IMG/VR virus record: IMGVR_UViG_3300007511_000019
DNA: 64,000 nt
Source of the DNA: a virus
Direction: 5' to 3' (one strand)
In this document: piece by piece, positions 2,693-28,800 of the stretch
How the letters are laid out: every line of letters begins with the position of its first letter
Numbering within the stretch: the first letter of the stretch is position 1
The notes under the pieces: generated by a model
What the model was told of the DNA's origin: nothing
The model's database searches: none
The model's input: only the letters and a program-made list of their open reading frames with translations
Program-made: the position numbers and the translations under genes

Positions 2693-2693
2693 C

Positions 2694-6931: not shown

Positions 6932-7021
6932 CGTGGCGAAACGTGTCATAATGAAATGATACGCCCCCAATTATGTCGGGACGATTTCCCCCTTATTCCT
7001 TAGCTAGGAGCTACGAGGAAC

Positions 7022-7567: not shown

Positions 7568-7589
7568 CCGGTCCGGCGGTCACAACTAA

Positions 7590-7627
7590 CACCCCTGGAT
7601 TGTAAGAAATCCAGGGGTGTTTTTCTT
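7590..7627 (+). terminator. rho-independent terminator
   Basis: Perfect 11-bp stem (CACCCCTGGAT / ATCCAGGGGTG) with an 8-nt loop, followed by TTTTTCTT. Confidence 0.75.
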
Positions 7628-7631
7628 ACAT

Positions 7632-8078: not shown

Positions 8079-8098
8079 CCAGTTCCGGAGAGGTAGGG

Positions 8099-8128
8099 TA
8101 GAATCAGGTAGATCGCCACCTGATTCTA
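8099..8128 (+). promoter_or_regulatory. TAGAAT -10-like hexamer embedded in a perfect 11-bp inverted repeat (TAGAATCAGGT-N8-ACCTGATTCTA); candidate promoter/operator or 5' hairpin
   Basis: The arms are perfectly symmetrical at 8099-8109 and 8118-8128. TAGCCA lies 17 nt upstream of TAGAAT. The element sits between the stop at 8078 and the ATG at 8138. Confidence 0.5.
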
Positions 8129-8137
8129 GGAACCCAA

Positions 8138-8968
8138 ATGACTGATCCCAGTTTTGCGGTATTTGACGAAGACCGATTTCCTCCCACGAGTAACCTCGCC
8201 GAAGCATATCAGCAAGAGGTTACCTACGGATACGAGGTAATGAAGGAACGATCGGTAGTGATCGCTGGTCTCGCTCGTAACATCGAAAAGGCAGTCCCGA
8301 TAACAACCTCCCGCATTGAGCGGCTAGGAGAGCTGTTTCAGGACTACCGTGTGGTGCTTTACGAAAACGACTCTCGCGACCGTACGCCTGAATTGTTACA
8401 GGCTTGGGCTGATTCCAACTCCAGCGTAGACCTTACGTCTGAACGCCGGGGCGATCCTGTGAATCCGCAAATCCGGTGTCTAAACCGGGCAGCCCGTATG
8501 GCTCACTACCGAAATCAGTGCCGACTCAAAATTGCGGAGAAGTACCCTGACGTAGATAACGTCATCGTACTTGATACCGACCTGACTGGCGGGTGGAGCT
8601 ACGACGGCATCGCCCACACCTTTTCCAAGACCGAGGCATGGGACTTCGTTGGAAGCAACGGGATCATGTTCAAACACTTTAACGGCCAGAACAACTACCC
8701 AGTCTACTTCGACGTCTGGGCATTTCGCTGGCAAGGCACCTATCAACCTTGCTTTGCACCAAAGATCAATCCCCGACGCTGGAACCGGGGCGAAGCTTTA
8801 GTTCCGCTCTACTCCTGCTTCGGCGGGTTAGGGGTTTATCGTGTAGAGGCAATGTTGCGGTGCTCGTACGACGGTTCGGACTGCGAGCATGTCCCATTTC
8901 ACCGCAAAATGCGGGAAGCCGGAATGGGCCGTATTTTCATGAACCCGAGCCAAATCGTACTCTATTGA
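8138..8968 (+). CDS. putative glycosyltransferase (GT-A-like)
   Basis: The protein is 276 aa with a DXD-like motif (VIVLDTDLTG). Its layout loosely resembles polysaccharide glycosyl/mannosyl transferases. Support is weak. Confidence 0.3.
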   Translation: MTDPSFAVFDEDRFPPTSNLAEAYQQEVTYGYEVMKERSVVIAGLARNIEKAVPITTSRIERLGELFQDYRVVLYENDSRDRTPELLQAWADSNSSVDLTSERRGDPVNPQIRCLNRAARMAHYRNQCRLKIAEKYPDVDNVIVLDTDLTGGWSYDGIAHTFSKTEAWDFVGSNGIMFKHFNGQNNYPVYFDVWAFRWQGTYQPCFAPKINPRRWNRGEALVPLYSCFGGLGVYRVEAMLRCSYDGSDCEHVPFHRKMREAGMGRIFMNPSQIVLY

Positions 8969-9118
8969 GGAAGAGGTGCACAATGGATTTGTTCGCTACG
9001 GAAGTTGGTCAATTCCCTGACTGGCTAAAAGGTATGCTGTTCATCGTCTTCTGTATCGGTGGCAGCCGACTACTAATGTCGATCTTCAAGTCGTAACAAC
9101 GACAACACTGGAGACCAC

Positions 9119-9721
9119 GTGCAACCACTACCAGGTGAATCTCTCCCGGAAGGCGAGATTCGTCGTCGACTACTTTCGATGCTGCGGGACGCACACAAGT
9201 GGTTATTTGTAAGCCCATCCGAGAAATCCTTCCTCACCGTCCTACGTATAATACAACCGCTGGTTGACGTGGACGATGAGGAAGTTGCGGCTGAGGCCGT
9301 TGACGCGTACACTATTGAAACCTCTGAGGGCGGCACGATCTACCTGCTGGCCTTCCCGAAGGAACTTCTTACACCTGCTAAGCTACTTCAGCGACTACAG
9401 GCTGTAAACGAACTTCCACCTGACTTAGGATCAGCCGACTGGATCGAGCGAGTTGAGCACGCAAACGTTATTACTCCGACGTGTCCGCCACAAGAGTTGG
9501 CGGCGATGCTGTCCTGGCTCTCTAAGCTCGTATCCGCCGAAGTCGAGATCAATGCCATGGCTACCTACCATGCAGAAAACAGCAGTGATCTGTCTGACGA
9601 AATCTTCAAAGCCTTAGGCGTAGCGGGACTCTCGGCCCTACACGAGGAGACCGGGTTTGAACTTTTTGACAAGCCTGAGGAGCGAGCACACCCGTACTAC
9701 GCACCGTTTAGCGATAACTAG
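9119..9721 (+). CDS. hypothetical protein
   Basis: ORF of 200 aa. Confidence 0.4.
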   Translation: MQPLPGESLPEGEIRRRLLSMLRDAHKWLFVSPSEKSFLTVLRIIQPLVDVDDEEVAAEAVDAYTIETSEGGTIYLLAFPKELLTPAKLLQRLQAVNELPPDLGSADWIERVEHANVITPTCPPQELAAMLSWLSKLVSAEVEINAMATYHAENSSDLSDEIFKALGVAGLSALHEETGFELFDKPEERAHPYYAPFSDN

Positions 9722-9764
9722 AGAGGAGTCGCATGGTCCCGACAACAAAGGAAGGATCGAAACA

Positions 9765-10307
9765 ATGACTACACAGTGTCAGCGGTACCTGGAGCTAACT
9801 GTAAGTTCCGAAGGAGTAATTCACCCGTCCGTAGGTGACTGCAGCTATTGTGGCAGCATACGACCACTGATCGCGGTCATGGACACGATCAGATACGAGG
9901 CCGGTAGGTGGACAGCACGTTGTCCCAATTGCAGTCGCGAACGTCAGGAAATCAGTGTCCTAAACTTCTTCGACGACAACGCCTGGTCTGTTGATCTGTC
10001 AAAACTTCGACAGTCGCTGCTGGACGAGTTTCGTCGGCGACAGAAACCGATCCCGTTTCCTGACCGTACCGGTACCGATACTTACCGCCGGTCGCGTCGG
10101 TTACGAAACCCTGGGCGTAACGGTGATCCGCCAGCATCGCCCCACAATTACTACGAACACGGTTCTGCCATATTCTCCCAGCCGTTTCACGACGAAATGT
10201 CCGGACGGACATACAGTGCGGGTTGTCAAACCTGCGGTTGCGAGCGGTGTCGTTTGTCTCGAGATCGCATCGCTCAAAGGATGTGGGAGGAAGAAGGGTT
10301 AAGGTAA
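9765..10307 (+). CDS. hypothetical zinc-ribbon protein (start at the internal ATG with RBS AAGGAAGGA)
   Basis: Cysteine pairs CSYCGS...CPNCS and a C-terminal CQTCGCERC are present. Confidence 0.4.
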   Translation: MTTQCQRYLELTVSSEGVIHPSVGDCSYCGSIRPLIAVMDTIRYEAGRWTARCPNCSRERQEISVLNFFDDNAWSVDLSKLRQSLLDEFRRRQKPIPFPDRTGTDTYRRSRRLRNPGRNGDPPASPHNYYEHGSAIFSQPFHDEMSGRTYSAGCQTCGCERCRLSRDRIAQRMWEEEGLR

Positions 10308-10600
10308 TGTTCATTCTGATTCGCTTGCTGATTGTTTTGGGGCTAGTCGCGGCCATCGTGTGGTTAGCCACTAAGCTGACGCATAGCCCATGGTTTGGAC
10401 GCCTTGTTGACGTATTTCTGGGGCACAAGCCCACTGACAGTGAATTGACTGGCAACATCGACGAAGCTCGAGCCGACCTTGCGAACAGGGTCGAGGCTAA
10501 CCGTCTTGAAGCCGAACGTCTTGACGCATCGCGTAGACGTCTGGAGGCACACGGCCTTGCAGACAAACAAGACCATGCAAATCCTGGCAAACCCAGGTAG
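10307..10600 (+). CDS. small membrane protein with one TM helix and a coiled-coil tail (start at the internal ATG)
   Basis: MFILIRLLIVLGLVAAIVWLA forms a TM segment, followed by a charged helical tail. The gene sits immediately upstream of the SPFH gene. Confidence 0.45.
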   Translation: MFILIRLLIVLGLVAAIVWLATKLTHSPWFGRLVDVFLGHKPTDSELTGNIDEARADLANRVEANRLEAERLDASRRRLEAHGLADKQDHANPGKPR

Positions 10601-10613
10601 GAGCAATTCACCC

Positions 10614-11960
10614 ATGGAACGTAAGCACTTTGCCTACGCAGCCGCCGCCGTTCTCGGCGTCGTCGCACTGATTGTTTTGTTTGGAAATATGGGGTACAAC
10701 CGCGACGACCAGTGGCAAATCCACCAGTCTGTTACGGGCAAGATCACGGTGATTGACCGTGGCGGTTACTACCTCAACATGTTCGGTACCGTAACTGACT
10801 ACCCGCGTTACCGTGACTCGTTCTACTCGGCCCACCACAAGGAAGGCGGTGAAGAGGACGATTCGATTCGGTGCACCTTTAACGACGGCGGCACCGCTAA
10901 GGTGTCGGTGTACGTTAGGTTCTCCACTCCCCCAGAGGAGGACCAACGTCGAGCATTCCACCGTGTGTATTCTGCGAACATTGACAACACCTCGCAGGCG
11001 GTACGGGCTCACCTTGTTAACTGCGTTAAAGCGGCGGCACCGCTAATGTCTGCTAGCGAGAACCAGGCGTCACGCAAAGCCGAGTTTGCTCAAGTCATTC
11101 AGAACATGATGCAAGACGGCCTATACGTGATGCGACAAACAAGAGTTACTCTCGAAGATCAGGCGTTGATCGAAGTAGAGGCCAACGCGGACGGTAAGGC
11201 TCCCGTTCTTCGCGAGAAGCCTACCGAGGTTATGGCGACAGAGATCGTGCGAGATACCGAGACAGGTAAGCCGCTGATCGCTGAAGCATCGCCACTGACC
11301 AAGTACGGTATCGGGGTTGAGCAATTCTCGGTTACCGATATTGACTATGATCCAGAGACCCTCAAACAGTTCGCTGCGAAGAAAGAATCGTTCTTGCTGG
11401 CGGAACAGGCTAAGGCCCAACGACAGCAGTTCGTACAAGAGAAGCTGAAGATCATCGCTGAAGGTGAATCTGAAGTTGCCCGTATCGAGCAAGAGGGAAA
11501 CAAAGAGAAGATGGCCGCGACAGTATCCGCCGAGAAAGAGGCGGCTGTGGCAATCATCAACAAAGATAAAGCCGTGACCGAGGCTACACAAAAGGTCGAG
11601 GTGGCCCAGCAAGAAAAGCTGGAAGCCGACACCCGATTTGAGATTGCCGAAGTCCAGGTCAAGATCGCGGAAGAGGATAAGAAGGCCGAGATTGCCGTCG
11701 CCGAAGCCAAACAAAAGGCTCTGGAGATCGGCGGTGCTCTGTCGGAAGAAGAACGCGTTCTTGCAGAGATCGCTGCCGAACGCGATGCTAAGGTCGCCAC
11801 AGCCCTTGCTGGGTTAAAGGTACCAGGCGTCGTCATCGTCGGCGGTAAAGGTAGTGACTCAGGTGGTGGCGGAGAAAATCTCCAAAGCAATCTGATCAAC
11901 CTTACACTGTTGCGAGCCCTGGGGATCATTCCCAAAGACGCGACGAAGCCCGTCGAGTAA
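10614..11960 (+). CDS. SPFH/band-7 (flotillin/YqiK-like) membrane protein (start at ATG 10614 with RBS AGGTAGGAG)
   Basis: An N-terminal TM segment (AAAAVLGVVALIVLF) is followed by an SPFH-like globular region. The long C-terminal E/A/K/Q-rich coiled coil (AEQAKAQRQQFVQEKLKIIAEGESEVARIEQEG...) is typical of flotillin/HflKC-type proteins. Confidence 0.65.
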   Translation: MERKHFAYAAAAVLGVVALIVLFGNMGYNRDDQWQIHQSVTGKITVIDRGGYYLNMFGTVTDYPRYRDSFYSAHHKEGGEEDDSIRCTFNDGGTAKVSVYVRFSTPPEEDQRRAFHRVYSANIDNTSQAVRAHLVNCVKAAAPLMSASENQASRKAEFAQVIQNMMQDGLYVMRQTRVTLEDQALIEVEANADGKAPVLREKPTEVMATEIVRDTETGKPLIAEASPLTKYGIGVEQFSVTDIDYDPETLKQFAAKKESFLLAEQAKAQRQQFVQEKLKIIAEGESEVARIEQEGNKEKMAATVSAEKEAAVAIINKDKAVTEATQKVEVAQQEKLEADTRFEIAEVQVKIAEEDKKAEIAVAEAKQKALEIGGALSEEERVLAEIAAERDAKVATALAGLKVPGVVIVGGKGSDSGGGGENLQSNLINLTLLRALGIIPKDATKPVE

Positions 11961-11992
11961 ACGTGAGTTGCCAACGCAACTGCTGAAGTGAA

Positions 11993-12028
11993 GCACCGGG
12001 ACCCAAAGATCCCGGTGCTTTTGCTTTT
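11993..12028 (+). terminator. rho-independent terminator after the SPFH gene
   Basis: The stem is GCACCGGGA / TCCCGGTGC with an 8-nt loop, followed by TTTTGCTTTT. Confidence 0.7.
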
Positions 12029-12051
12029 AACAACCATGGCTAGGAGTACGG

Positions 12052-12453
12052 ATGCCAACAACCAACCAACTGGTTCGCAAGAACCGCAGAAAGCCAAGGA
12101 ACAAGTCCAAGCACCGGCTGATGCAGGAAAACCCGCAGCGGCGAGGAACAGTGCTAAAGGCTTGGGTGATGTTGCCGCGTAAGCCCAACTCAGCTAACCG
12201 CAAGGTGTGTCGGGTCCGGTTTGCCGATGGCAACGAGGCGACGTGCCACATTCCGGGCGAAGGCCACAACATCGTGGAGCACAACACCGTGCTCGTGCGA
12301 GGCGGCGGCCCACCTGATCTGTCCGGCGTTAAGTACCGTGTTGTTCGCGGTACGCTTGACTGTATCGGCGTTACCGAAGGTGCTAACAAGCAGCGGCGAA
12401 ACCAAGGCCGCAGCAAGTACGGTTCGCCAAAACCGTCCAAAGCAAAGAAGTAG
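12052..12453 (+). CDS. rpsL: ribosomal protein uS12 (S12) homolog, bacterial type
   Basis: The match to bacterial S12 is near full length: [14 protein letters not shown]..., [51 protein letters not shown], and SKYG. An RBS (AGGAG) lies 9 nt upstream. Confidence 0.85.
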
Positions 12454-12610
12454 ACGATCGTGGTGTTCTGGCGAGTGATTTTTCATGGAGGAGCCCTCAT
12501 CGCTTTGGGACGGAGTCCCAACAAGGATCAGGGATTATCCAGTGGCGAGGGCAGTCGCCGCCGAATTGGAGTTGGCTCTTGCCAGAACACCTTTTTTACA
12601 TGGAGGGCAC

Positions 12611-13147
12611 ATGACCACCATACCTGAGTTGAAACCTTGCGATTGCGGCGTCAAGCCTGTGGTGTTTGGCGAAGCCCTGATGCTGAGTATCCGCTGCCCG
12701 ACCTGCAGTGGCCAATTTATTATGGGAGTAGATGTTCCAGATTTACGTGATCGCTGGAATAACGGCGAACGCGGGGTTGTGGCTAACTACAACCGCCCGG
12801 CCCGGCCTAACGTGGTCGATCTCGACGAAACATCGGATTACCCGCCCCTCAAGCCTCTACCCAAGCTGGGCATAGTTTGCACTATCGACCGAGTTAAGCC
12901 ACCCACCTTCTGGGATCGGCTGTGTGCCTCATTTTCCCAGGGGGGAAGATGTTACCTCGAGTTCGCTGCTTTGCATCCTTCCGCGTTTGTAATCGAGTGG
13001 GAACCAAAGTTTCGGGTATTATTCGGGCATCGAACTTACCTGGACGACCAAGGCCAACCATTCGCTACGAGAAAAGCTGCTGAGCAGTACGAAGCCGTCC
13101 TGATTAGGCGGCGTTGCTTCGAGGTGCAGGATAGCCGCCGCTCCTAA
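12611..13147 (+). CDS. Lar-family-like zinc-ribbon protein (start at ATG 12611 with RBS GGAGGG)
   Basis: ELKPCDCGVKP...IRCPTCSGQF...DLRDRWNNG resembles the Lar restriction-alleviation family signature (LKPCPFCG...C..CG...W). Confidence 0.4.
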   Translation: MTTIPELKPCDCGVKPVVFGEALMLSIRCPTCSGQFIMGVDVPDLRDRWNNGERGVVANYNRPARPNVVDLDETSDYPPLKPLPKLGIVCTIDRVKPPTFWDRLCASFSQGGRCYLEFAALHPSAFVIEWEPKFRVLFGHRTYLDDQGQPFATRKAAEQYEAVLIRRRCFEVQDSRRS

Positions 13148-13219
13148 TCGGAGAGGTGGCTAGGGCGAGGGAGGGCTCTATCCGAACCACTCCCCCTCGC
13201 TTTAGCTATTAGCTGCTGC

Positions 13220-13247
13220 TTGACAAATTGCTCTTGACAGGGATAAT
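13220..13247 (+). promoter_or_regulatory. sigma70-like promoter: TTGACA-16 nt-GATAAT, with a second TTGACA copy
   Basis: TTGACA is at 13220-13225, a second TTGACA at 13234-13239, and GATAAT at 13242-13247. The preceding hairpin (13185-13220) resembles a terminator. AGGAG lies 7 nt before the ATG at 13286. Confidence 0.5.
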
Positions 13248-13285
13248 CTAAAGGAGAACCGGTTCATCCTCCTTAGGAGCAGCGA

Positions 13286-14020
13286 ATGTCCAACATCCCG
13301 TTAGTGACTGCTGTAATGGTCACCGGGAAGGATCCTGAAAGAGCACCGTATGCTCTGGCGGCAGTACAGAGCTTCTTGTCGCAAACCTGGCCCAATAAGG
13401 AATTGGTCATCATCAATGACGGCAAAGTGCCGTTGTTACCGTTCCTGTCTACCAGTTTACCCCCTGGTACCGATATTAGAGAATCGACATTTCCGTCAGG
13501 AGCTTACACACTAGGCGATCTTCGTAACAAAGGCTTAGAGAAAGCTGACGGCGAATGGGTTATACAGTGGGACGATGACGACTGGTACCATCCTTGGCGA
13601 ATCGCTATGCAGATGGACGAGGCCGTTGACGACCACGCCGTTTTGCTAAAGTGTCAAGTCCGATACAGTTTTCCTAACGATTCTGCGAAAGCTTTTCGGT
13701 GGCCTTACAAACCCAACCCGGCCATTCCCGGCACCGTTCTGCACCCCAACAAACCAGGCCTGGCCTATCGTTCTGAGCGTAAAGCTGAGGACGACCACTT
13801 TTTGCAAGACCACTTCAAGGACAAAATGATCGTTCTTGATAATGCAGCCAACCCGCACCTCTACTTGCGGTTTTTCACAGGACACAACACGTGGGACCAT
13901 TTCCACGTCATGGGTCTGCACGCTAACCCGGACCATAAAGGTAGGTGGACCTTACCAGAAGAATCTTCTGATTACCTTCGTACGGTCATTGACACCCACT
14001 ACAAATTTGCGGTTAGCTAA
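13286..14020 (+). CDS. glycosyltransferase family 2
   Basis: VTAVMVTGKDPERAPYALAAVQSFLSQTWPNKELVIINDG matches the GT2 N-terminal block, and there is a DXD motif (QWDDDDWYH). Confidence 0.65.
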   Translation: MSNIPLVTAVMVTGKDPERAPYALAAVQSFLSQTWPNKELVIINDGKVPLLPFLSTSLPPGTDIRESTFPSGAYTLGDLRNKGLEKADGEWVIQWDDDDWYHPWRIAMQMDEAVDDHAVLLKCQVRYSFPNDSAKAFRWPYKPNPAIPGTVLHPNKPGLAYRSERKAEDDHFLQDHFKDKMIVLDNAANPHLYLRFFTGHNTWDHFHVMGLHANPDHKGRWTLPEESSDYLRTVIDTHYKFAVS

Positions 14021-14953
14021 ATGCCAGAATCCATCCAACAATATCTGATCACTGGAGCCAACGGCCAGCTAGGGATGGAACTGGTGCGGCAGCTGGGCGA
14101 GGAGTCTGTAATAGCCAAGCCCCGCGAGACCTTCAACGTATCCGACATGACGAAGGTCAAGGAACTGATTCCTTTGCTGCGACCAGCCGCTGTTATCCAT
14201 ACCGCTGCTATGACGGATTGGGTTACTGCCGAACACAAGCGGAATGATTGCTGGCAGACTAACGTTCAGGGGACGGACAATCTCGTTAAGGTATGTGCCT
14301 TGCACGGGATTCCTTTTGTACATATCAGTTGTGACAGTGTTTTCGGCTCCAACCGCGACCCTAGGCCGCGTACGGAGACCGATCCGGTGGTGCCTTGCCA
14401 CCAACTGGCTATTACGAAAGCATGTGCTGAGCACAGCGTGCTCCGACTTGGGCAATGTGTTTGCCCCGAGTTTTGGCAAAAAGGCTTCCGGTACTGGGTT
14501 ATTCGCACAGGACTTCTGTACGAACGCCCATGGCGACAAAACCAGAACCTCGTCAGCCGGATACTTCGTCAAGCGGATAACCGCCGTGGCGAAGAGGTGT
14601 CCCTTGCTTCCGACATGATCTTCACTCCGACATACGCTCCGCACCTGGCCAAGGCTCTGGTCTGGTTGGTGCGGCACTACCGTGAAATGCCGTCGGGTGT
14701 ATACCACGTTGGCAATCTAGGTCACTGTTCTGCCTACCAGTTTGGGCAAGAAATCTCGTCAAATTCACGACGTCCGCTAAAGATCCGGTCAACTACACGC
14801 GAACAGATGTCGCAGGCCTTCGGTGGCTGGGACGCTAAGCTCCTGCCATACCATACGGCTCTCGACTGTAGCAAATTCGCTGATGTAGTACCTATTCCTC
14901 TGCCGGATTGGCGGGAAGGTGTCGAGCAATTTTCGCTTGACTACGAGAGTTAA
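14021..14953 (+). CDS. RmlD-like NAD(P)H-dependent 4-ketoreductase (dTDP-4-dehydrorhamnose reductase family)
   Basis: The N-terminal LITGANGQLGMEL motif, followed by VIHTAAMTDWVTAEHKRNDCWQTNVQGTDNLVKVCALHGIPFVHISCDSVFG, matches the RmlD substrate-binding-domain family. Confidence 0.65.
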   Translation: MPESIQQYLITGANGQLGMELVRQLGEESVIAKPRETFNVSDMTKVKELIPLLRPAAVIHTAAMTDWVTAEHKRNDCWQTNVQGTDNLVKVCALHGIPFVHISCDSVFGSNRDPRPRTETDPVVPCHQLAITKACAEHSVLRLGQCVCPEFWQKGFRYWVIRTGLLYERPWRQNQNLVSRILRQADNRRGEEVSLASDMIFTPTYAPHLAKALVWLVRHYREMPSGVYHVGNLGHCSAYQFGQEISSNSRRPLKIRSTTREQMSQAFGGWDAKLLPYHTALDCSKFADVVPIPLPDWREGVEQFSLDYES

Positions 14954-18213: not shown

Positions 18214-18260
18214 GATGGTGATCTAAATAAGCCAGACCTTCGCGTCACAATAAATTGGTA

Positions 18261-18294
18261 AGGGCTTAGCTCGGATGCTAAGCCCTCTTTTATT
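18261..18294 (+). terminator. rho-independent terminator
   Basis: Perfect 10-bp stem (AGGGCTTAGC / GCTAAGCCCT) with a 6-nt loop, followed by CTTTTATT. Confidence 0.7.
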
Positions 18295-18302
18295 GCCGTC
18301 AG

Positions 18303-18638
18303 ATGATGGAGGCTTTCATGCAAAGCCAGCGAAGTGTCGAGGTCGGGCCAGACTACCTGGATGTGGACGTCCGACAACTTGTCTTACACTGGAATAGTCA
18401 CATCCATACGTTTGGGTTCGATGTGATATACGTCAACAGCAATGACAACATTTCAGTTAAGCAAGGCGGACTTTACCGCAACGAAATCCCGACACTCTGT
18501 GAACTGGGCAGACGGGTACTTGACTTCTTCCCGTATGGCTTCTTCCCCCCTGAGATTGCAAGCCAGCTCGCGGCCATACGTGCCGAATCTACGTCGCTTA
18601 ACAGACGATCGCGACCACTGGCCGCGTTCATGAGTTAG
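18303..18638 (+). CDS. hypothetical protein
   Basis: ORF of 111 aa that sits between two terminators. Confidence 0.3.
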   Translation: MMEAFMQSQRSVEVGPDYLDVDVRQLVLHWNSHIHTFGFDVIYVNSNDNISVKQGGLYRNEIPTLCELGRRVLDFFPYGFFPPEIASQLAAIRAESTSLNRRSRPLAAFMS

Positions 18639-18660
18639 GCTGCGAGAAGTCACACTAGTG

Positions 18661-18689
18661 GGTCCCGACGAAAGTCGGGGCCTTTTTTT
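18661..18689 (+). terminator. rho-independent terminator whose U-tract is part of the conserved TTTTTTTAGCTATCAG motif
   Basis: Stem CCCGAC / GTCGGG with a GAAA loop and a 7-T run. Confidence 0.65.
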
Positions 18690-18711
18690 AGCTATCAGGG
18701 CCTGCTAGAAT
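18683..18711 (+). promoter_or_regulatory. conserved motif TTTTTTTAGCTATCAG followed 7 nt later by TAGAAT (copy 1)
   Basis: Identical 16-mers occur at 18683, 21930 and 62103. Here TAGAAT is at 18706-18711 and the ATG is at 18730. Confidence 0.5.
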
Positions 18712-18729
18712 CTTTGGGAGGAGATCCTT

Positions 18730-20509
18730 ATGCCCAATATCTTGCTGCCTGAACTCAGCACTGACGCCGAAGAGATGTCTATGCTCGGATTCCCGATCGG
18801 GAATTTGGAGAAGGTATCATCACCCCTAACAGGGGGTTTGTGGCCAGAACTTCTTTCGTATCTTCCCGTTCGGGAAAATCGCCTCCATGGGGAAATTCAC
18901 GAAAAGAGGGGTGAAGACGCGAAAGGCATTCCAGACCGAAAGTACTATGGCGACCTATCTAGAGTTTCTCCGCAGTTACTGGACTTCGTTATCCAACGGC
19001 ATCTTGCCGAGAGAGCTGGCCCTCACTTTGATTTCCGATTCGGAGACCCCAAAGGGCTCTTCTCCTGGGCAACCAGAAAACCGATGCCCGGCATTGGCGG
19101 ACGAACCGCCCTATTCCAGCAGCCCATGCACTCCTACAAGTACAAAGATTGGGAGGGCACAATTCCTAGCGGACGCTATGGGGCTGGACGGGTTAAGAAA
19201 CAAGAGGATGGCAAACTTCTCATTACCAAAGCCAGTCCGGAATCTATCCACTTCACCATGGCCCACAAGAAGCACCCGCAACGCTTCGTGATGATCAAAC
19301 CGAAGGGCTGGAAAGATAAAGACTGGTTGCTTATCAACAAGACCCCGACTGAGCAATTGCCGTACGAGAAAGTACGGTACAAAAAGATTCCAGCGGAGCA
19401 GGTCGACAAGTACATCGGCCAAATGCAAAAAGGCGATACTCTGGAGGCAAAGGTTGACGGGGCCTCCTCGCTGATTAAACTAATGAAAGAGGGCGTCGAG
19501 GTGATGTCCTACCGTACGTCCAAGGAAACGGGCCGACCGATACTTCACACAGAAAGATTGCTTCATGGTCTCCCCGCTTACAACATCCCAGACGACCTGG
19601 TTGGCACGGTACTTAAAGGCGAACTCTACGGAGTGCGACCTGGAGGATCCGGAGATGGTGATGGCTCCGCTGACAAGGGAGACCCTCTACGCGGCCATGT
19701 TGCTGATGAACCTCAGCTGGCGGAAGGGAGCTTTGAACCTGACGGAGGGCGAGAAAGAGATACTCGAGTTTCAGAGAGAGCAGACCAGGAGGATGTTCCC
19801 GGAACTGTTAGGCCCCAAGACGACGGACTCGGAGAATATCTTCAAGAGGCTCTTTCCGCCGGTACCGGTAGACCAACTCAGCGAGAGCGAGTACTCCGCC
19901 CTCAAGAACTTGGAGGACTGCTCAACTCCTCCGTCGCCAAATCAATCCAAGACCAGCGAGAGCGACAAGTAAAACTCAGAAATGCCGTTTACGATATCCA
20001 ACAGCTAGGCAACAAACCAATCGACTGGCATGTGACTCCCCGGCTCGAGCGTAGGGATATGATTCGAAAAGTTCTTGAGCACCTACCGCCCGAGACGTTT
20101 CACATCTCAGAAGCCGCAGAGACGCCCGAAGCCGCCCAGAGACTCTGGCAACAAATACAGTCTGGTGAGCACCCGATTACTCGAGAGGGTGTAGTCATGC
20201 ATCCGCTACACGGTCCCCCCACGAAAGGAAAAATTTTAGAAGACGTAGACGTGTATTATCGCCAAGCATTTCCGGGCAAAGGTAAACACGAAGGATCGGG
20301 TGCTGGCGGCTTCGAATACTCACTCACACCTGACGGGCCTATAATTGGTAAGGTAGGAACAGGTTTCACGGACGAGTTACGCAGGTCCCTTTTCGAGAAC
20401 GATCAAGACTATGCCGGAAGGATTGCACGAATCCAATCGCAAGAACAGCTTCCTAGCGGAGCTTATCGAGCACCGAGCTTTCTGGCTTTTCACGAGGATC
20501 AACCTTATG
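18730..20509 (+). CDS. LigD-type 3'-phosphoesterase domain fused to an ATP-dependent polynucleotide ligase (no in-frame stop, so the 3' end is uncertain; the tracker ORF runs to 21927)
   Basis: PE domain: GPHFDFRFGDPKGLFSWATRKPMPG...DWEGTIPSGRYGAGRV matches the LigD phosphoesterase signature. Ligase motifs: I is KVDGAS, III is LKGELYG, IIIa is AVYDI, IV is EGVVMH, plus an OB fold (GKVGTGFTDE...RAPSFLAFHED). A low-complexity insert of about 110 aa lies between motifs III and IIIa. Confidence 0.6.
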
Positions 20510-21046
20510 CAACAACGAAACAGTCTAGGCAGGTTTCTGCAAGGACACAAATCCAGAACGACTCACGGACAAAGTGGAACGAAAACATACAAGGTGTGGG
20601 CGGGGATGAAACGCCGCTGCCTGGACCCAAAACGGCACAATTACAAACACTACGGAGGACGAGGCATAAAGATATGTGCAAGGTGGCGGGACTCCTTCGA
20701 GAACTTTCTGGAAGACATGGGAACGTGCCCAGACGGTTATTCGCTGGAGAGGGAGAACAACGACAAAGACTACTGTCCCACGAATTGCACTTGGATACCT
20801 CTCGAGAAACAGGCAGCAAACACTCGGAGCAACGTGTGCTTGACTTTTCGCGGCGAAACCAAGCATCTGACACAATGGGCGAGAGAGTCGGGAATCAGGC
20901 AGCAGACATTGACCAGGCGTCTTCAGCGAGGTTGGTCCGTGCAGCGTGCACTAACCGAGAAGCCAGTAGTAGGCAAAAATCAATTCTCGTCCAGCCAGAC
21001 CTCGGACTCACGTCTGAAAAACTCGCTGAACTCGGGATCGGAATAG
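20507..21046 (+). mobile_element. free-standing HNH/AP2-like homing-endonuclease gene with a C-terminal helix-turn-helix (+1 frame relative to the ligase ORF)
   Basis: YKVWAGMKRRCLDPKRHNYKHYGGRGIKICARWRDSFENFLEDMG...GYSLERENNDKDYCPTNCTWIPLEKQAAN is typical of phage HNH homing endonucleases, and LTQWARESGIRQQTLTRRLQRGWSVQRAL is an HTH tail. The ATG at 20507 coincides with the expected C-terminus of the ligase OB domain. Confidence 0.6.
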
Positions 21047-21049
21047 ATC

Positions 21050-21927
21050 CCGACGAGCACACAGCCCTGGAAAAAGAAGCCTCACTTGCTAGACTTCTGA
21101 CACTACCTGGCGTCAAGCACCTACTTCGCTGGCAGTCAAAGCTTGGTCGGAAGGCTAACGACTACTTGTGGAACAAACTGCTAACCGCAAATCGCCGAAC
21201 CGCGTTGGGCACCGCAGGCGTCGTAGGCGGTGCCGGTTACGGCGGCTACCGGATGGGCCAAGGCGACTGGCAAACTCCAGGCGACATTCTACACGACCCG
21301 ATCATCCAAAAGCCGCTGGAATGGTCTACAGTTATCCCGGAGAAATATAACATCCCATTGTGGACAGCAGCAGGTATTGCTGGTGGCCGTAGTGTGGGCC
21401 GTCACGCGGCCCAAGCCGCCGTAGGCAGTGCCAACGCGTTGCGGCGGCTAGTTACGATGCAGCCCTTATCGCAAGCGTTGTCTGGTCAAATCGGTAGTAC
21501 CCTTGGTGTTGCTGGGCCTATCTTAGGCGGTGCCAAAGGCGGCGTCGGAACCTACTACACTCACCGGGCAGTAGAGAAAGCCAGGGAAGCTGCTGAGCAG
21601 CCAACAGTACCTGAAGTCAAGCACAGCACAGATTCGCACTACCTGCGAGCCTTCTCCCAAGTAAACCCTGCACACCTTTACCGAGGCGACCAGTCTGCTC
21701 TGCGTAACGCTAGCAACTACATCAACGCCTTGTTAATACAGGGTCGGCAAAACGTCGCCAAAGCCTATAATACTGATAGCCTCAACCTGGCCTTGGCTCC
21801 GATGGGGCAACGTTGGCAACGAGCCTTGGCCAGTCTTGAGGGTTACGATCCCATCATGTCCAATCCCCTTGATCGGGTGTTGCACATGATGCCAGCAACC
21901 CCGCAGCTGAGTCGTCCGTACGTATGA
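21050..21927 (+). CDS. Gly/Ala-rich putative membrane/virion protein encoded by the 3' part of the 18730-21927 ORF (start undefined)
   Basis: Segments such as TAGVVGGAGYGG, AAGIAGGRSVG and GVAGPILGGAKGG resemble the downstream gene 21953-22792. There is no ATG near the 5' end, so an alternative start or continuation of an upstream exon is possible. Confidence 0.3.
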
Positions 21928-21929: not shown

Positions 21930-21945
21930 TTTTTTTAGCTATCAG
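21930..21945 (+). promoter_or_regulatory. conserved motif TTTTTTTAGCTATCAG (copy 2), directly after the stop at 21927
   Basis: Exact 16-mer. There is no clear upstream hairpin and no TAGAAT downstream (the ATG is at 21953). Confidence 0.4.
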
Positions 21946-23961: not shown

Positions 23962-24234
23962 ATGACCACTGCAACGATGCTCACCGTTATCGGCCAACGA
24001 CTACTCATTCGCCGCGATACTGCCCCAACAAAGAGCGAAGGCGGTATTCATCTACCCGAGCAGGTACGAGAGAAGCTGAGTGAGGGTAACGTAATCACCG
24101 CCGGTGCCAAGTGCGAACACGAATTTACCGAGGGCCAACGTGTGGTCTTCAACCCTTACTCGGGCGATACCGTCAAAATCGACGGAGAAGATTTGTTGGT
24201 CGTCCGCGAAGACGATATCCTACTGGCGTTCTAA
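23962..24234 (+). CDS. groES: co-chaperonin GroES (Cpn10) homolog
   Basis: The 90-aa protein matches GroES at IGQRLLIRRDTAPTKSEGGIHLPE, GNVITAGAK and GQRVVFNPYSGDTVKIDGEDLLVVREDDILLAF. An RBS (AAGGA) lies upstream. Confidence 0.75.
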   Translation: MTTATMLTVIGQRLLIRRDTAPTKSEGGIHLPEQVREKLSEGNVITAGAKCEHEFTEGQRVVFNPYSGDTVKIDGEDLLVVREDDILLAF

Positions 24235-25116: not shown

Positions 25117-25894
25117 CCAACCTACCTTCTACGACGCTGTACAACACGTCACTGCTAAGGCTTTGCAACGTAAAGCTCTAGCTGGAGCAGGTACAGCGGC
25201 ACTAGCTGGTCTCGGTACTGGTGCAGGTCTACGAGGTATCCTCGGCCTGTTGGAAATGAGCAGGCAAGGTGCCCAGCCGCCCCAGGCTCAAGCCCCTACC
25301 GGTCAGATCGAGGTCCCGGTGGACGACGAGAAGATCGCTGCCTTGGCGGATTTCCTCAAAGGCGACTATGCCAAATCGACTTCTGGTGTGCCTTGGGCCA
25401 TTCCTGCCGCTGTTGGTGCCGGTGCTGCCGGAGCGTACGGTGGTTGGAAAGGTATCGACGCACTGCTCGAGCAAAGACGAAAAGGCGAACTAGAGGCTGA
25501 GCTTGAAAAAGCCAAGATGGACTACGAAGCTGCCTTGTCTGGCGACACCAAGTTAGCGGAAGACCTGGACGAACTCTACGACACAGTAGAGAAACAAGCT
25601 GTCTCCGCGTCAGACGCAGCAGGAACGGCTACAGGACTCTACGGAGTCTACGGCGGTACTTCAGCTTTGTTGGCCGCCATTATGGCTTACCAATACGGTA
25701 AGAAGCGACAACGCCGGTCCTTGCTTGAAGCGGCACAAGAGAAACGCCGCCGACAACGCTTTGCACGACAACCTGTGCCGATCCAAGTACGGCCAGTGCC
25801 TAAGCAGCATGAGCAGGACCCGCTGCAGGCAAGTAAGTCCCCGTTCCAGGCCGCACCTAGCTTGGACGAACAAGAAGATCAACTGGATAAGTAA
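25058..25894 (+). CDS. hypothetical Ala/Gly-rich membrane-associated protein with a charged C-terminus (start uncertain; the tracker start is 24986)
   Basis: An RBS (AAGGAA) precedes the ATG at 25058. It is TAATG-coupled to the RNAP gene at 25894. Confidence 0.35.
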   Translation: MTNLALVLKASRQSSEKSANQPTFYDAVQHVTAKALQRKALAGAGTAALAGLGTGAGLRGILGLLEMSRQGAQPPQAQAPTGQIEVPVDDEKIAALADFLKGDYAKSTSGVPWAIPAAVGAGAAGAYGGWKGIDALLEQRRKGELEAELEKAKMDYEAALSGDTKLAEDLDELYDTVEKQAVSASDAAGTATGLYGVYGGTSALLAAIMAYQYGKKRQRRSLLEAAQEKRRRQRFARQPVPIQVRPVPKQHEQDPLQASKSPFQAAPSLDEQEDQLDK

Positions 25895-28800
25895 TGCCAA
25901 ACATTCTGTCACCGCCCTCCGGCGTGCTAAGCGGGACCAAACCTGCTCTGCCGCAACCGGTACGTCCTCTGCAAAAAGAGGAACCGGAAAAGCGAGAGTT
26001 CGGTGACGCTTTGGCCACGCGGCGGCTTATCTACAACAACGTGCTGGCGTCGACTCAAACACTTGAGCCGATCTCTAACCAACGCCACACGCTACAACTG
26101 CGTGATGTTAAATACGCTGACGATCCCAAGTTCTCGTACAAGCAGCAAAAGGAAGCCATCCTCGGCGGTAAGAGTCTCAACCGTCGACTGCAAGGCACCT
26201 GGGAGCTGTCGGATAACGAAACTGGCGAAGTGCTTGACAGCAGGCCCGGCGTAGTTGCTCGTGTACCGCACCTGACGGATCGCGGTACGTTTATCCACAA
26301 CGGTAACGAGTACACCCTGTCCAACCAGATGCGGTTGCGGCCAGGCGTGTTTACCCGTGTCAAAGACAATGGAGAAATTGAAGCCCACGCAAACCTATTG
26401 CCGGGTAAAGGCGTCAGCCACCGGTACTTCCTAGACCCCGAGAAGGGTATTTTCCACATGCGGATGGGGCAGGCGAAAATACCGCTGATGCCTCTTCTCA
26501 AGTCGCTCGGAGCAACAGACAAACAATTGCAGGAAGCATGGGGCAACGAACTGTGGCAAGCTAACGCTCAAAAGGACAACCCAGGAACCCTATCGAAGCT
26601 GTACCAAAAACTGGTACGTAAGATTGACCCTGATGCCGACGAGCCAGCTAAACGCCTAGCCGTTGCCGAAGTCATGGAGAAAATGGAACTGGACCCCGAG
26701 GTTACACAACGAACCTTAGGTAACAGTTTCAACAGGATGGGGTTGGATGCGATTCTAGCCACCACCAATAAATTGCTCGCAGTATCCCGTGGAGAACAGG
26801 AGGTCGATGACCGTGATCATCTCGCTTATCAAAATGTCCTGGGCCCAGAAGATTTGTTCGCGGAACGTATCGCAAAGGATTATGGCGGACTCCGCCGACA
26901 ACTTTTGCATAGATCTAGCTTTAAGGGAGACTTGTCAGCCGCACAGTCCGGTATGCTAAGTCGCCAGTTAGAAGCCGCGTTACTCCATTCTGGATTAGGG
27001 CAAAGCCTTGAAGAAATCAACCCAGCAGACATCTTCGACAAACAATCAAGAATCTCACGTCTCGGTGAGGGCGGCATCCCGTCCATCGACGCCGTGCCAG
27101 ACGAAGCTAGGGCGGTTCAGCCGAGCCACTTGGCTTTCATGGACCCAGTACGCACGCCGGAATCATTTAAGGTCGGTGTGGATGTGCATATTGCCAACAC
27201 GGCTCGTAAAGGATCTGATGGCCGAATTTACTCACCGTTCGTTGATCCTCGTAGCGGAAAAGAGGTGTGGAAGTCGCCCCAGGACCTTGCAGATCTCACA
27301 GTCGCTTTTCCCGGCGAAATGCGTAGGGAAACTAAGCGGGTTGGTGCCATGCAAGGCGGCAAACTCAAGTTTGTCCCAAAACAGTCTGTGGACCTGGTTG
27401 TGCCCACTTTCGAAAACGCTTTCTCGCCGCTAGGTAACATGGTTCCCATGAAGTCAGCGGTCAAGGCCCAGCGTATGGCTATGGCTAGCCGTATGCTCAC
27501 ACAGGCCTTGCCGCTCGAGAACGCAGAGAGTCCGCTTGTACAGACCGGCATCTCTGGCGAAGAGGATACAAGTTACGAGCAGCGATATGGTCGTAAGATG
27601 GGTGCCGTCTTCGCCGACAAGCCAGGACGAGTAGTTTCAATAAGCGACCAAGGGATTAAGGTCAAGTACGACGACGGAACTACAGAAGAGAAGCAGCTCT
27701 ATAACAACTTCCCGTACAACCGCAAAAGCGTAACCGGTGACACTCGTATTGTGATCCGACGCAAGAATGGCGAACTGTGGACTGGATCAATCGATAAGTA
27801 CCACTGGGAAGATAGCGACCAAGTGCAGTCGGTGGACCCAGACTCCAAGCAGTCTGCCTGGAAACGCGTCACAGGTTACATTACGCACTGCAACGACAAA
27901 CAGCTGTTGCGGATAACTACTAAATCCGGGAGATCGGTCGTGGTCACGGAAGACCACAGCCTTATTACGCTGGACAAACACGGAGAACTGGTACCGGTCT
28001 ACCCTAAAGACTGCGAGATCGGGCTAACCCGCCTGCCTGTAGCCATGTTGCAGGGTCATCGATCTCGGCGACATGGCCAGGAGATTAGCAAAGACCCGAG
28101 CGGCATTCTGTGGGGGCTGTACGTAGCCGAGGGGCACTGTCCGCCTACCCAACCAGGGCTAGTTAACATTGCAGTAGAGCCAGACGACCGTGCAGAACAG
28201 GTGTTGGAAGTGGCTCGTCAGTGCGGTTATGAGGCGTACCGCAATGGCGGTAACGTATGCTTTACTGACCACGCCTTCGCCGCCAAGGCGACTGAGCACT
28301 TTGGCCACCTGTCGCACAACAAGCGAATTCCCGCCTGGGTGCTTGGTACTCCCGTCTGGTTTCGGGAAAGTTTTGTTCAAGGCTATATGGCTGGCGACGG
28401 GTGCTTGTGGGAGGACTCAAACGGGTCGCTACAGCTGCAGGCCGTTACGGTTTCTAGAGAGCTTCGCGACGGATTTGTCGAGTTGCTGTTAAGCCTAGGC
28501 ATTATGACGACGCTTTTCGATGCACCTAGAAAGCACCTCAACGACAACTGGCGTGACGCGTACGGTTGCCGCATAATCAGTAGCCACGTAGGGCGACTTC
28601 GTAAGTGGTTCTACTACGCAGACCGTGAGCGACAACTCCACGAGCTGCTAAAGCCTACGTATCGAGCCGCAAGCTTTGACCTGGTCCCGGTAGCCGCCGA
28701 GGCCCGTAAACTTCTGTACAAGGGTTATATCGGGACGGTTCCTAGCTATGTCTATAAGACCGCCAACCAGGGAGCAGTTGCTAAGCACCGGTTGAAAGAA

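Follow-up and report, generated by a model that had tools for sequence, protein, structure and literature searches.

A 16-mer that recurs in the viral DNA stretch analysed here (the window, 64,000 nucleotides), TTTTTTTAGCTATCAG, consists of the T-run of a terminator (T7) joined at zero spacing to a strictly conserved 9-base tail, AGCTATCAG, hereafter the box. The reading that we favor, to which we assign a probability of about 0.5 on the basis of sequence comparisons, is that these elements form a box-type subclass of intrinsic terminators that marks the 3' ends of transcription units, is shared by phages and Planctomycetota, and has a conserved host factor as its probable reader. The box itself is asymmetric, and its core, TTAGCTATCAG, is often followed by CG.

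Exact copies of the 16-mer occur on the + strand at 18683-18698, 21930-21945 and 62103-62118, as an earlier sequence-only reading of the window had reported. Counting the motif throughout the window, a check proposed in that reading, returned these three copies and no fourth match with up to 3 mismatches (0.30 expected; 0 of 100 shuffles reached 3); for an exact 16-mer, the uniform expectation over 64 kb is 3e-5. One further AGCTATCAG, located at 29504 inside the RNA polymerase gene and lacking a T-run, is probably a chance occurrence. Strain variants recovered from metagenomes were identical around the motif and hence uninformative.

Copies 1 and 3 lie behind GC-rich hairpins and ahead of nearby gene starts, in agreement with the earlier description. 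At copy 1, a terminator scan identified a + strand hairpin of 10 pairs, 7 of them GC (GGGTCCCGAC-gaaa-GTCGGGGCCT, 18660-18683), which is located downstream of the gene at 18303-18638 and folds as RNA with -20.3 kcal/mol (z = -2.77). The T-run (18683-18689) and box (18690-18698) are followed by ggcctgc and then by TAGAAT (18706-18711), which forms part of an extended -10-like sequence, TGcTAGAAT (18703-18711, + strand), and may act as a promoter. Behind it come an SD sequence, GGGAGGAG (18716-18723), and an ATG at 18730, 18 nt from the hexamer, which opens a gene for a LigD-phosphoesterase/ATP-ligase-like protein of 1065 aa (Pfam, PHROGs).

The arrangement at copy 3 is similar. Two + strand hairpins precede it, one at 62040-62062 and one, identified by the terminator scan, at 62066-62100, downstream of the gene at 61519-62025; the segment 62040-62120 folds with -46.7 kcal/mol (z = -4.38). 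The T-run (62103-62109) and box (62110-62118) are followed by cgaccgg, a -10-like TAGAAT of putative function (cgGTAGAAT; hexamer at 62126-62131, + strand), ggtact and an ATG at 62138, which opens an 80-aa ORF, with a conserved 220-aa gene next at 62380. TAGAAT therefore stands 7 nt past the box at both copies, as had been noted. Its position 6 nt before the ATG at copy 3 would imply a leaderless or near-leaderless mRNA, and the same TAnAAT-N6/7-ATG layout was seen again in relatives. At the sequence level, both TAGAAT elements have the layout of a sigma-70 extended -10 (TGn or G at -14), with a predicted start ~7 nt downstream that would suit the gene start; this layout also recurs in relatives.

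A near copy, TTTAGCTATTAG (13201-13212, + strand), combines a hairpin (13165-13200), TTT and the box variant AGCTATTAG (13204-13212), which is the commonest one-mismatch variant among relatives, with 14 non-redundant sites. The TTGACA promoter that had been reported behind it is present: a sigma-70-type TTGACA-16-GATAAT (13220-13247, + strand; promoter scan, 11 of 12 matches) begins 7 nt past the near copy, upstream of a glycosyltransferase gene at 13286 (Pfam GT2). A stem, a T-run and a position just past a co-directional gene, all characteristic of intrinsic terminators, are found at copies 1 and 3 as well as at the near copy, and we read these three sites as probable terminator hairpins, each with an independent host-type promoter behind it.

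Copy 2, also on the + strand and consisting of the T-run and box, departs from this pattern. It resides in a 25-nt intercistronic gap, between the TGA (21925-21927) of the 1065-aa gene and an ATG at 21953, 7 nt downstream, and has neither TAGAAT nor any other -10. No significant hairpin precedes it (fold z = -0.05), so that the stem-loop of an intrinsic terminator is missing, and it is among only three hairpin-less copies with a homology-supported gene downstream on the same strand. The terminator-promoter cassette suggested by the sequence-only reading thus holds, at the level of sequence, for copies 1, 3 and the near copy, and does not extend to copy 2.

To compare the motif across relatives, we scanned sequence collections; the resulting counts are of matches listed, and hence lower bounds, many instances are orthologous and hence not independent, and gene strands were assigned heuristically. 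The motif was present in more than 120 IMG/VR stretches, at loci spanning 31-64% GC. A directly adjoining upstream hairpin of -10 kcal/mol or lower was found for 69% of the 187 non-redundant instances listed, compared with 30% of other T7 runs. While the T-run varied in length and purity (T5-T10, TTTTCTT, TTTCTTT), the box always abutted it.

The same association emerged from a motif-blind set of 72 loci chosen by capsid homology (1.38 Mb). Here, the gene strand carried 28 copies of the 9-mer and the opposite strand 4, where chance predicts about 5 for each; a T-run preceded 27 of the gene-strand copies. For the 12-mer TTTAGCTATCAG, gene-strand versus other-strand counts were 14 versus 0 at 0 mismatches and 16 versus 1 at 1 mismatch (p = 3e-8). 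In these loci the box was carried by 17 of 226 terminator-like hairpins, and the box-less terminators displayed no residual or graded consensus past the T-run. Hairpin, T-run and box together form a discrete terminator subclass.

The motif is also biased with respect to gene junctions. Essentially all canonical copies had their upstream gene on the same strand, 57 cases being supported by homology; inspection by hand resolved the apparent exceptions, save one that stayed ambiguous. Convergent gene ends are occupied by at least 8 independent ortholog groups, often with the stop codon of the downstream gene 0-3 nt from the box (examples are L030, L012/17/75/107 and L023/55/56), and no clear canonical copy was found at a divergent junction. 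Metagenome contig ends, used as a proxy for transcript ends, were not enriched at the motif. We rejected the box as a symmetric operator, since the palindromic form CTGATAGCTATCAG is absent from 3.1 Mb. A second, box-less terminator-promoter composite came to light at a junction other than the one upstream of the g56286 homolog.

The window is a member of a deep clade of uncultured giant phages, with contigs of ~150-235 kb, that encode their own multisubunit RNA polymerase. Proteins of the window are shared by 26 of 120 short loci (RNA polymerase, 27-61% identity; capsid protein, 57-70%), and the window itself encodes a beta-beta'N fusion and a beta'C subunit, with inteins in both. No close relatives emerged when 17-23 kb were compared with deposited phages by megablast. 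The motif occurs in this clade at a density of ~1 copy per 16-20 kb, more than 10-fold that of Planctomycetota chromosomes.

The chromosomal copies speak against the earlier proposal that the 16-mer is phage-specific. Among the genome matches listed, 21 Planctomycetota matches had a hairpin and 9 did not, versus 13 and 77 in other taxa (Fisher p = 3e-8). The Planctomycetota carriers include the isolate Neorhodopirellula pilleata Pla100 (contig NZ_SJPM01000004.1, near 223,403-223,418), a Bythopirellula chromosome and contigs of 3.7-3.9 Mb, in which the units of hairpin, T7 and box are flanked by cellular or accessory genes and have no -10 downstream. Hairpin, T-run and box also occur in an unrelated planctomycete mobile operon (ubiquitin-like/E2-like/ThiF), and some host copies may reside in mobile DNA. 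In ~200 kb of planctomycete DNA we found only one copy beyond those selected by the search itself, indicating that host usage is sparse. Taken as sequence matches, these occurrences make Planctomycetota the probable host phylum of the phage clade. A cyanobacterial host, hinted at by GCGATCGC, was discarded after this sequence proved not to be enriched (2 observed, 1.2 expected).

In the favored reading, copies 1 and 3, like the near copy, would close their upstream genes, and separate, self-sufficient host-type promoters would restart transcription. Copy 2 would be a rare version with a weak hairpin between cistrons that attenuates transcription at most; efficient termination at this copy, or at the few other hairpin-less copies between a stop codon and an SD or ATG, would silence the next gene. 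We infer a role for the box in termination or 3'-end formation; its candidate reader is some conserved host component, belonging either to the transcription or to the RNA-3'-end machinery. This factor could sense the box as downstream duplex or as non-template DNA while the polymerase is on the U-tract, or, alternatively, in the first bases of read-through RNA, and its action would reinforce or define the transcript end. The phage signal would have been copied from the host. We know of no precedent in bacterial intrinsic termination for a 9-nt box past the release site.

A bolder proposal, which we hold only tentatively, is that the T-run plus AGCTATCAG constitutes a new bacterial transcript-end signal, factor-dependent, partly independent of a hairpin, specific to Planctomycetota and copied by viruses and mobile elements. 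Its reader would be a protein or the polymerase itself, and its function would be like that of the sequence-specific T7 RNA polymerase, Pol I and poxvirus signals, although with a multisubunit polymerase of the bacterial type. Full-text searching for AGCTATCAG yielded only primers and unrelated sequences, and the literature searched, which dealt with planctomycete promoters, phages of planctomycetes and the RNA polymerases of jumbo phages, contained no description of the motif.

The -10-like hexamers downstream of the motif raise the question of whether the box serves these promoters instead, as an upstream activator site or UP-like element for a host-type extended -10 within a regulated, Mot-box-like cassette. 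At copies 1 and 3 the box lies at about -28 to -20 relative to TAGAAT, and in relatives offsets 6-11 and 17 show an excess of -10-like hexamers. A -10-like hexamer was found within 40 nt of 28 of 61 box-bearing terminators (46%) versus 33 of 126 box-less ones (26%; p = 0.008), an enrichment that makes a functional tie to downstream promoters possible. Box variants also precede CTAAAT promoters by 4-8 nt at orthologous sites, and at two sites in one subclade the reverse complement CTGATAG abuts CTAAAT.

However, the spacing between box and promoter argues against such a role. The -10-like hexamers of relatives are spread over offsets 5-11 and 17-18 nt, their peaks are out of helical phase, and the -10 spacing varies by at least 5 nt. 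A downstream -10, -35 or CTAAAT may stand as little as 3 nt or as much as 60 nt from the box (TTGACA, 3-10 nt), and a single orthologous site already covers 8-11 nt; in locus L354, CTTAAT promoters (related to CTAAAT) lie 9, 18, 18 and 60 nt from the box. Owing to this variation we also rejected the box as the -35 of the downstream -10. Moreover, for 41% of canonical copies the next 40 nt contain nothing promoter-like, the copies at convergent junctions are conserved without a -10, the host chromosomal copies have no -10 downstream, and the downstream -10s have G at -14, such that no upstream element should be needed. These observations leave an activator site doubtful.

It is also unlikely that the box acts at the RNA level, where U7-AGCUAUCAG in read-through transcripts would be the site of a sequence-specific endoribonuclease or RNA-binding protein, either defining a hairpin-protected 3' end, separating cistrons or trimming antisense read-through. 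This mechanism would cover all contexts in which the motif is found, namely after terminators, without a hairpin between cistrons (copy 2, L039/L059) and at convergent ends, and it is consistent with a motif that is strand-specific, asymmetric and without a palindromic form in 3.1 Mb. It would also fit locus L325, in which an ORF-less segment of ~95 nt leads from a CTAAAT promoter to a hairpin-less T8 and box. Yet we know of no nuclease with a linear recognition sequence as long as this. No covariation or structure involving the box was detected, Rfam returned nothing at the gathering threshold in the window (only sub-threshold hairpin matches, E > 0.3, around copies 1 and 3), and nothing in this model calls for the box to adjoin the T-run without a gap, as it always does.

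The sequence-only reading took the 16-mer for part of what looked like a phage-specific terminator-promoter cassette that may be recognised by the phage RNA polymerase or a phage sigma-like factor. The 16-mer would then be a promoter, or an element of one, placed right behind terminators and served by the multisubunit polymerase of the phage or by such a factor. The window does encode RNA polymerase subunits, relatives encode sigma-like proteins, and the motif is highly conserved across this polymerase-encoding clade, intergenic and co-oriented with genes. Among ~60 window proteins, no sigma factor was found by Pfam/PHROGs, nor a homolog of gp10 from Arash, a distant cultured relative with its own RNA polymerase and the sigma-like gp10 and gp196; homologs of gp10 are present in two motif-bearing loci (L018 and L069). 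In the whole 180,819-bp Arash genome both the 16-mer and CTAAAT-N17-CATATT are missing, and the repeated words present are its own; the lack of the 16-mer argues against recognition of the motif by the polymerase of the clade as such; the Arash paper contains no promoter data.

Several further observations make a phage promoter very improbable. The motif is not confined to polymerase-encoding genomes, as its presence in Planctomycetota chromosomes and in the ubiquitin-like/E2-like/ThiF operon demonstrates. The convergent ortholog groups have nothing downstream on the same strand, the distance to the -10 is variable, and a density of only ~1 copy per 16-20 kb is low. In several copies an SD and ATG follow directly behind the box, where transcription starting downstream of the box would cost the SD. 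A better candidate for a clade-specific phage promoter, judged by its layout, is CTAAAT-N17-CATATT, a bipartite sigma-type motif of the clade that is separate from the box. Locus L063 had appeared to have alternating gene strands in greedy ORF calls; its + ORFs proved spurious by codon-position GC, and its "+" motifs are reverse-oriented CTGATAG-CTAAAT promoters.

Least probable of all is a recombination junction like that proposed for PeSLs, at which short identical terminator-tail sequences would flank gene cassettes and promote their gain, loss and exchange, with conservation reflecting module spread rather than a role of the box in transcription: two direct copies (18683 and 21930) do flank the ligase gene, the stretch between the 2H-phosphoesterase gene and the g21953 homolog measures ~5.7 kb in the window and ~1.5 kb in L008/L096, the g58597-to-g62380 interval is variable among relatives, L354 contains dense arrays of small cassettes, and one junction (L141) shows that a box-type module can be exchanged for a box-less one, but 16 nt is short for homologous recombination, there is no associated recombinase or inverted partner site, and the motif is exact at orthologous sites with both flanks diverged across 31-64% GC, pointing to purifying selection on the sequence itself.

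Should the box of this terminator subclass aid termination or the formation of 3' ends, it would be the first element of its kind, conserved and sequence-specific, to be described past the U-tract of an intrinsic terminator in bacteria, and would offer a handle on gene expression in Planctomycetota, whose transcription signals are uncharacterised in the literature searched. The motif provides a sequence tag that ties an uncultured phage clade to its probable host phylum and, combined with CTAAAT-N17-CATATT, should allow transcription units to be mapped in genomes of the clade. Finally, it carries a caution, in that a phage with its own polymerase may have a conserved repeat beside a -10 without this repeat being the promoter of that polymerase.

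Compared with known systems, the elements resemble Rho-independent terminators in their GC-rich stem-loop, their run of 5-10 T and their location behind a co-directional gene, and, as with some of these terminators at convergent ends, may work in both directions. They differ in the invariant box of 9-11 nt at zero spacing and in the few copies that have T-run and box without a hairpin; to our knowledge, canonical intrinsic terminators have no conserved sequence past the U-tract. The PeSL/PmSL cassettes of T4-type phages (Arbiol 2010, PMC2839356; Comeau 2014, PMC4122927) likewise combine stem-loop terminator and promoter modules as intergenic repeats, with variable cassettes and several module types per clade. 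What is conserved in them is the sigma-70-like promoter, -35/N17/-10, or else a Mot box whose distance is fixed (PMC4122927), whereas the conserved part here is neither a -35 nor a -10, the promoter stands at a variable distance or is absent, and the element is common to host chromosomes. Copies 1 and 3 have a -10 without a -35, and TTGACA-16-GATAAT occurs only at the near copy. The incomplete genomes compared show variable gene content beside motif sites, which may or may not amount to the preference for gene-content breakpoints (hyperplastic regions) that PeSLs show.

T4 middle promoters, in which a box of ~9 bp behind T/A residues lies upstream of the -10 and replaces the -35, are superficially like copies 1 and 3. 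The MotA box, at -30 and acting with a sigma-70 -10, requires a fixed spacing of 11-13 bp to that -10, whereas the spacing here runs from 5 to at least 18 nt and the box also occurs without any -10. The stoperators of cluster A mycobacteriophages are also short, asymmetric intergenic sites, co-oriented with transcription and proposed to halt elongating polymerase. Their ligand is the immunity repressor of temperate phages, and they are not joined to the U-tract of a terminator; in contrast, neither a repressor nor an integrase turned up here, and host chromosomes also carry the motif.

Terminators composed of a T- or U-run and a specific sequence include the class II signals of T7 RNA polymerase (ATCTGTT and a U-run), the vaccinia early signal U5NU, and the T-rich element of Pol I with Reb1 or TTF-I, and we know of none for bacterial RNA polymerase. 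These signals belong to other polymerases and differ in geometry, the T7 element being located upstream of the U-run and the Reb1 site ~10-15 bp downstream. In joining a T/U-run to a specific sequence, and in being workable without a hairpin, they would offer the closest functional analogy to the T-run and box described here.

A scan of the whole window found three exact copies of the 16-mer TTTTTTTAGCTATCAG, a terminator T-run joined without spacing to a 9-nt tail box, at 18683, 21930 and 62103, all on the + strand and just as the sequence-only reading had counted them. Allowing up to three mismatches added no site in the window to these (0.30 expected), none of 100 shuffles reached three copies (0/100), and the repetition is real and non-random. 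Copy 1 lies directly behind a 10-bp, GC-rich hairpin (18660-18683, + strand) and is followed on the same strand by ggcctgc, TAGAAT, a strong SD (GGGAGGAG) and ATG 18730; copy 3 has a strong hairpin upstream (62066-62100, + strand) and, downstream on the + strand, cgaccgg, TAGAAT, 6 nt and ATG 62138. A degenerate near copy at 13201 (TTTAGCTATTAG, + strand) is also preceded by a hairpin, and the TTGACA promoter earlier noted behind it proved to be a sigma-70-type match (11/12) starting 7 nt downstream. The proposal of a terminator-promoter cassette, with hairpin before and TAGAAT and gene start after, holds for copies 1 and 3 and fails for copy 2 (21930, + strand), which occupies the 25-nt gap between the stop of a 1065-aa gene and ATG 21953, with no TAGAAT and no significant hairpin in its surroundings (a weak, 5-bp one only) and no promoter downstream. 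Judged by their sequence, copies 1 and 3, like the near copy, are predicted to be full terminators, each with an independent promoter behind it; copy 2 can be at most a putative attenuator or processing site, because the next gene depends on read-through transcription.

The window, at ~54% GC and with all plausible genes on the + strand, is phage DNA. It encodes a multisubunit RNA polymerase as a beta-beta'N fusion (25894-31551, + strand, 1885 aa) and a beta'C subunit (33032-36094, + strand, 1020 aa), each with an intein carrying a LAGLIDADG homing-endonuclease domain. As in Salmonella phage Arash, a distant cultured relative, these genes lie inside the virion structural module, which also encodes a capsid protein with homology to Arash gp226 as well as a minor tail protein and a virion structural protein; Arash virions contain beta, beta' and a sigma-like protein (PMC10585845). 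Arash and three Vibrio phages are the closest cultured relatives (~30% identity in polymerase and capsid proteins), a DNA-level search against deposited phages found no close relative, and the same phage is present in several marine metagenomes. The lineage fits the "mReC" type of polymerase-encoding tailed phages, whose promoters were not analysed in the paper describing the type (PMC7481178). Other genes include an exonuclease, a ribosomal protein S12/S23-like gene (12052-12453, + strand; precomputed Pfam hit in the JGI record), a GroES/Cpn10 co-chaperonin (23962-24234, + strand) and a large sugar and cell-envelope modification cluster (485-14953, + strand) with epimerases/dehydratases, a DegT aminotransferase, methyltransferases, a GT2 glycosyltransferase, RmlD, a cytidylyltransferase with a Clp_N domain and a nucleoside deoxyribosyltransferase. 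The 1065-aa gene (18730-21927, + strand) fuses a LigD 3'-phosphoesterase domain to an ATP-dependent ligase-like region; it has the 16-mer on either side and is missing from the matching interval of some relatives (loci L008/L096). Two further intergenic features were observed. The 106-nt gap before gene 60376 holds an inverted repeat, GGCGATCGCA...TGCGATCGCC, around ~47 nt (60291-60357), whose two arms are the sole sites of GCGATCGC in the window. A stretch of 327 nt without an ORF (6293-6619) has an extended -10-like TGGTATACT inside an inverted repeat (CACACCGCCC...GGGCGGTGTG) and several more hairpins; it may be a non-coding RNA, and comparison of this stretch with Rfam returned no match.

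The exact 16-mer occurs in at least 120 IMG/VR stretches, many on contigs of 150-225 kb. Among the matches listed, there are several contigs with 2-4 copies, GC content across the loci spans 31-64%, their flanking sequences are unrelated, and nearly every copy has a GC-rich hairpin upstream; 26 of the 120 short loci listed have proteins in common with the window, with polymerase identities of 27-61%. Because circularity was to be avoided, we also assembled a motif-blind set of 72 loci (1.38 Mb), picked solely via capsid-protein homology. In this set the gene strand has 28 occurrences of the 9-mer core and the opposite strand 4 (~5 expected per strand), with a T-run directly before 27 of the 28; the 12-mer TTTAGCTATCAG occurs 14 versus 0 times exactly and 16 versus 1 with one mismatch, many instances of the box being orthologues, so that counts are not independent. 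Phage box density is ~1 copy per 16-20 kb, and one-base variants (AGATATCAG, AGCTATCGG, AGCTATTAG) occur at individual sites independently of lineage. Searches of Rfam and the literature found no description of the motif.

Several features tie the box to the terminator. Among the matches listed, 69% of 187 non-redundant box instances have a hairpin of <=-10 kcal/mol in the upstream 40 nt, compared with 30% for the remaining T7 runs of these loci and 23% for random 40-mers. T-run length varies, with interruptions as in ordinary U-tracts, and the spacing from T-run to box is always zero. Downstream spacing is variable: -10-like hexamers lie at offsets 5-11 and 17, TTGACA lies 3-10 nt away, a clade motif CTAAAT lies 4-8 nt away at orthologous sites, and the related CTTAAT promoters of one locus (L354) lie at 9, 18, 18 and 60 nt. 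Ahead of a leaderless gene, one orthologous site has TATAAT/TACAAT at distances varying from 8 to 11 nt; some copies run directly into an SD and ATG, and others into the stop codon, in reverse complement, of a convergent gene. With coding strands called heuristically from protein conservation across phages, 77 cases have a same-strand gene downstream and 21 an opposite-strand one; after removal of ~7 reverse-oriented promoter-associated variants and 3 chance matches within coding sequence, canonical copies remain at convergent junctions in at least 8 independent ortholog groups (for example loci L030; L012/17/75/107; L023/55/56). Apparent cases of an opposite-strand gene upstream of the box vanished on inspection. 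Since a promoter is expected at divergent and never at convergent junctions, and the reverse was observed, the box is very unlikely to be a promoter.

It could instead be an activator or UP-like element serving a downstream -10, and a -10-like hexamer does lie within 40 nt of 28/61 box-bearing versus 33/126 box-less terminators (p = 0.008). We consider this unlikely: 41% of box-bearing terminators have no promoter-like element whatever, and most -10s downstream of the box have G at -14 and an ATG 6-7 nt further on, resembling self-sufficient extended -10 promoters that give leaderless mRNAs. In the motif-blind loci the box sits on 17 of 226 terminator-like hairpins, and the box-less terminators there have no leftover consensus after the T-run; box-bearing terminators would thus be a discrete subclass. 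Hairpin, T-run and box together correspond at the sequence level to an intrinsic terminator, and the element is best classed among the intrinsic terminators, as one that bears a conserved tail box.

A clearer promoter-like signal than the box is a second clade motif, CTAAAT-N17-CA(T/C)A(T/A)T, with conserved cGG/cGT directly 5' of the -10; in related loci its spacer is exactly 17 in 43/54 non-redundant matches (~3.5 expected per spacing), and it is likely a clade-specific sigma-type promoter. Both window copies (18222-18250 and 59489-59517, + strand) are followed within ~15 nt, ahead of a gene start, by a strong hairpin and T-run (hairpins at 18261-18286 in region 18251-18302, and at 59533-59557 and 59569-59587 in region 59518-59609), a layout that recalls the promoter-proximal terminators of Q-type antitermination or attenuation. 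One subclade has stop-CTGATAG-CTAAAT-N17-CATATT on the coding strand; since the reverse complement of CTGATAG is CTATCAG and TAGCTA reads as a palindrome, the promoters there were scored as reverse-oriented box variants. No fully palindromic box was found in 3.1 Mb scanned.

Other modules were observed in relatives. Upstream of homologs of window gene g56286, many (L145-L181 and other MCP-selected loci) share a conserved box-less terminator-promoter composite, hairpin GGGCTGGCCG-loop-CGGCCAGCCC, T-run and, immediately after, GTATACT; in L141 a box-type module, TTTTTTTAGCTATGG, stands at this junction. L354 (1-2300) packs 4-5 box-type terminators into 2.3 kb, each followed by CTTAAT-N17-gcgtCATAAT, in a small-cassette array with an ORF-poor, highly structured stretch of ~500 nt. 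In L325 (1600-1800), ~95 nt with no ORF extend from a CTAAAT promoter as far as a T8 plus box that lacks a hairpin; this segment may be a small RNA. Arash (OQ632216; L193-L196) has two sigma-like genes, gp10 and gp196, and repeated words, GGTTACAACGTTTG (x10), TTACTTATACCAG (x10) and TCTATATATAACTATTTTTAG (x5), unanalysed in the literature found, which are candidate promoters of its packaged polymerase.

We infer that the box may act with the U-tract to end or delimit transcripts, its reader probably being a conserved host component. With the polymerase on the U-tract, this reader would act on the downstream duplex or non-template DNA; alternatively, its target may be the first bases of read-through RNA. 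Geometry speaks against a simple protein roadblock at the box, because a protein at +1 to +9 would halt polymerase short of the U-tract, given the RNA polymerase footprint. That the box is a site of RNA processing or binding, a reading that would accommodate copy 2, seems improbable, since it does not call for the fixed zero spacing to the T-run.

The 16-mer also occurs in cellular DNA. Scanning one genome per bacterial or archaeal species, with matches ranked by upstream hairpin strength, gave at least 120 matches; among those listed, copies with versus without a hairpin number 21/9 in Planctomycetota and 13/77 in all other taxa (Fisher p = 3e-8). Planctomycetota make up 25% of the matches listed and an estimated few percent only of the species sampled. 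Hits include the isolate Neorhodopirellula pilleata Pla100, a complete Bythopirellula chromosome and contigs of 3.7-3.9 Mb, and only 2 of the 120 matches listed are phage-clade contigs. Next to these copies lie cellular or accessory genes (a GntR-type regulator, ThiF, DUF4956, a P-domain protein), several copies are again at convergent sites, and three Pirellulales genomes share one orthologous site, beyond which the sequence has diverged. Density in host DNA is low, a single extra copy in ~200 kb beyond search-selected ones. In L276 and L300 a box-type terminator ends a cluster of a ubiquitin-like protein, an E2-like protein and ThiF (E1), also found in the small viral contig L118. This cluster, its E2-like protein Cys-rich (L276 1986-4680, L300, L230, L265 and L118), is thus common to planctomycete chromosomes and a viral contig, and a conjugation system of the defence type is its probable identity. 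Planctomycetota are very probably the hosts of the phage clade. Being shared by unrelated planctomycete-associated replicons, the box is not private to a phage polymerase, and the earlier suggestion that the 16-mer belongs to a phage-specific promoter read by that enzyme, which the phage does encode, or by a phage sigma-like factor is very unlikely, given the variable downstream spacing, the convergent junctions and the Planctomycetota copies.

Among known systems, the PeSL and PmSL cassettes of T4-type phages combine a stem-loop with a promoter, their conserved repeat being a sigma-70 promoter or a Mot box at fixed distance (PMC4122927). The box unit, whose conserved part is T-run plus box, falls outside that definition, and a recombination junction of the PeSL kind is a very unlikely reading. 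The unit also falls outside the definition of a polymerase-specific phage promoter. Sequence-specific terminators adjoining T-runs include T7 class II, Pol I with Reb1/TTF-I and poxvirus U5NU. Such T-run-adjacent terminators, together with mycobacteriophage stoperators, would be the nearest functional analogies of the box unit.
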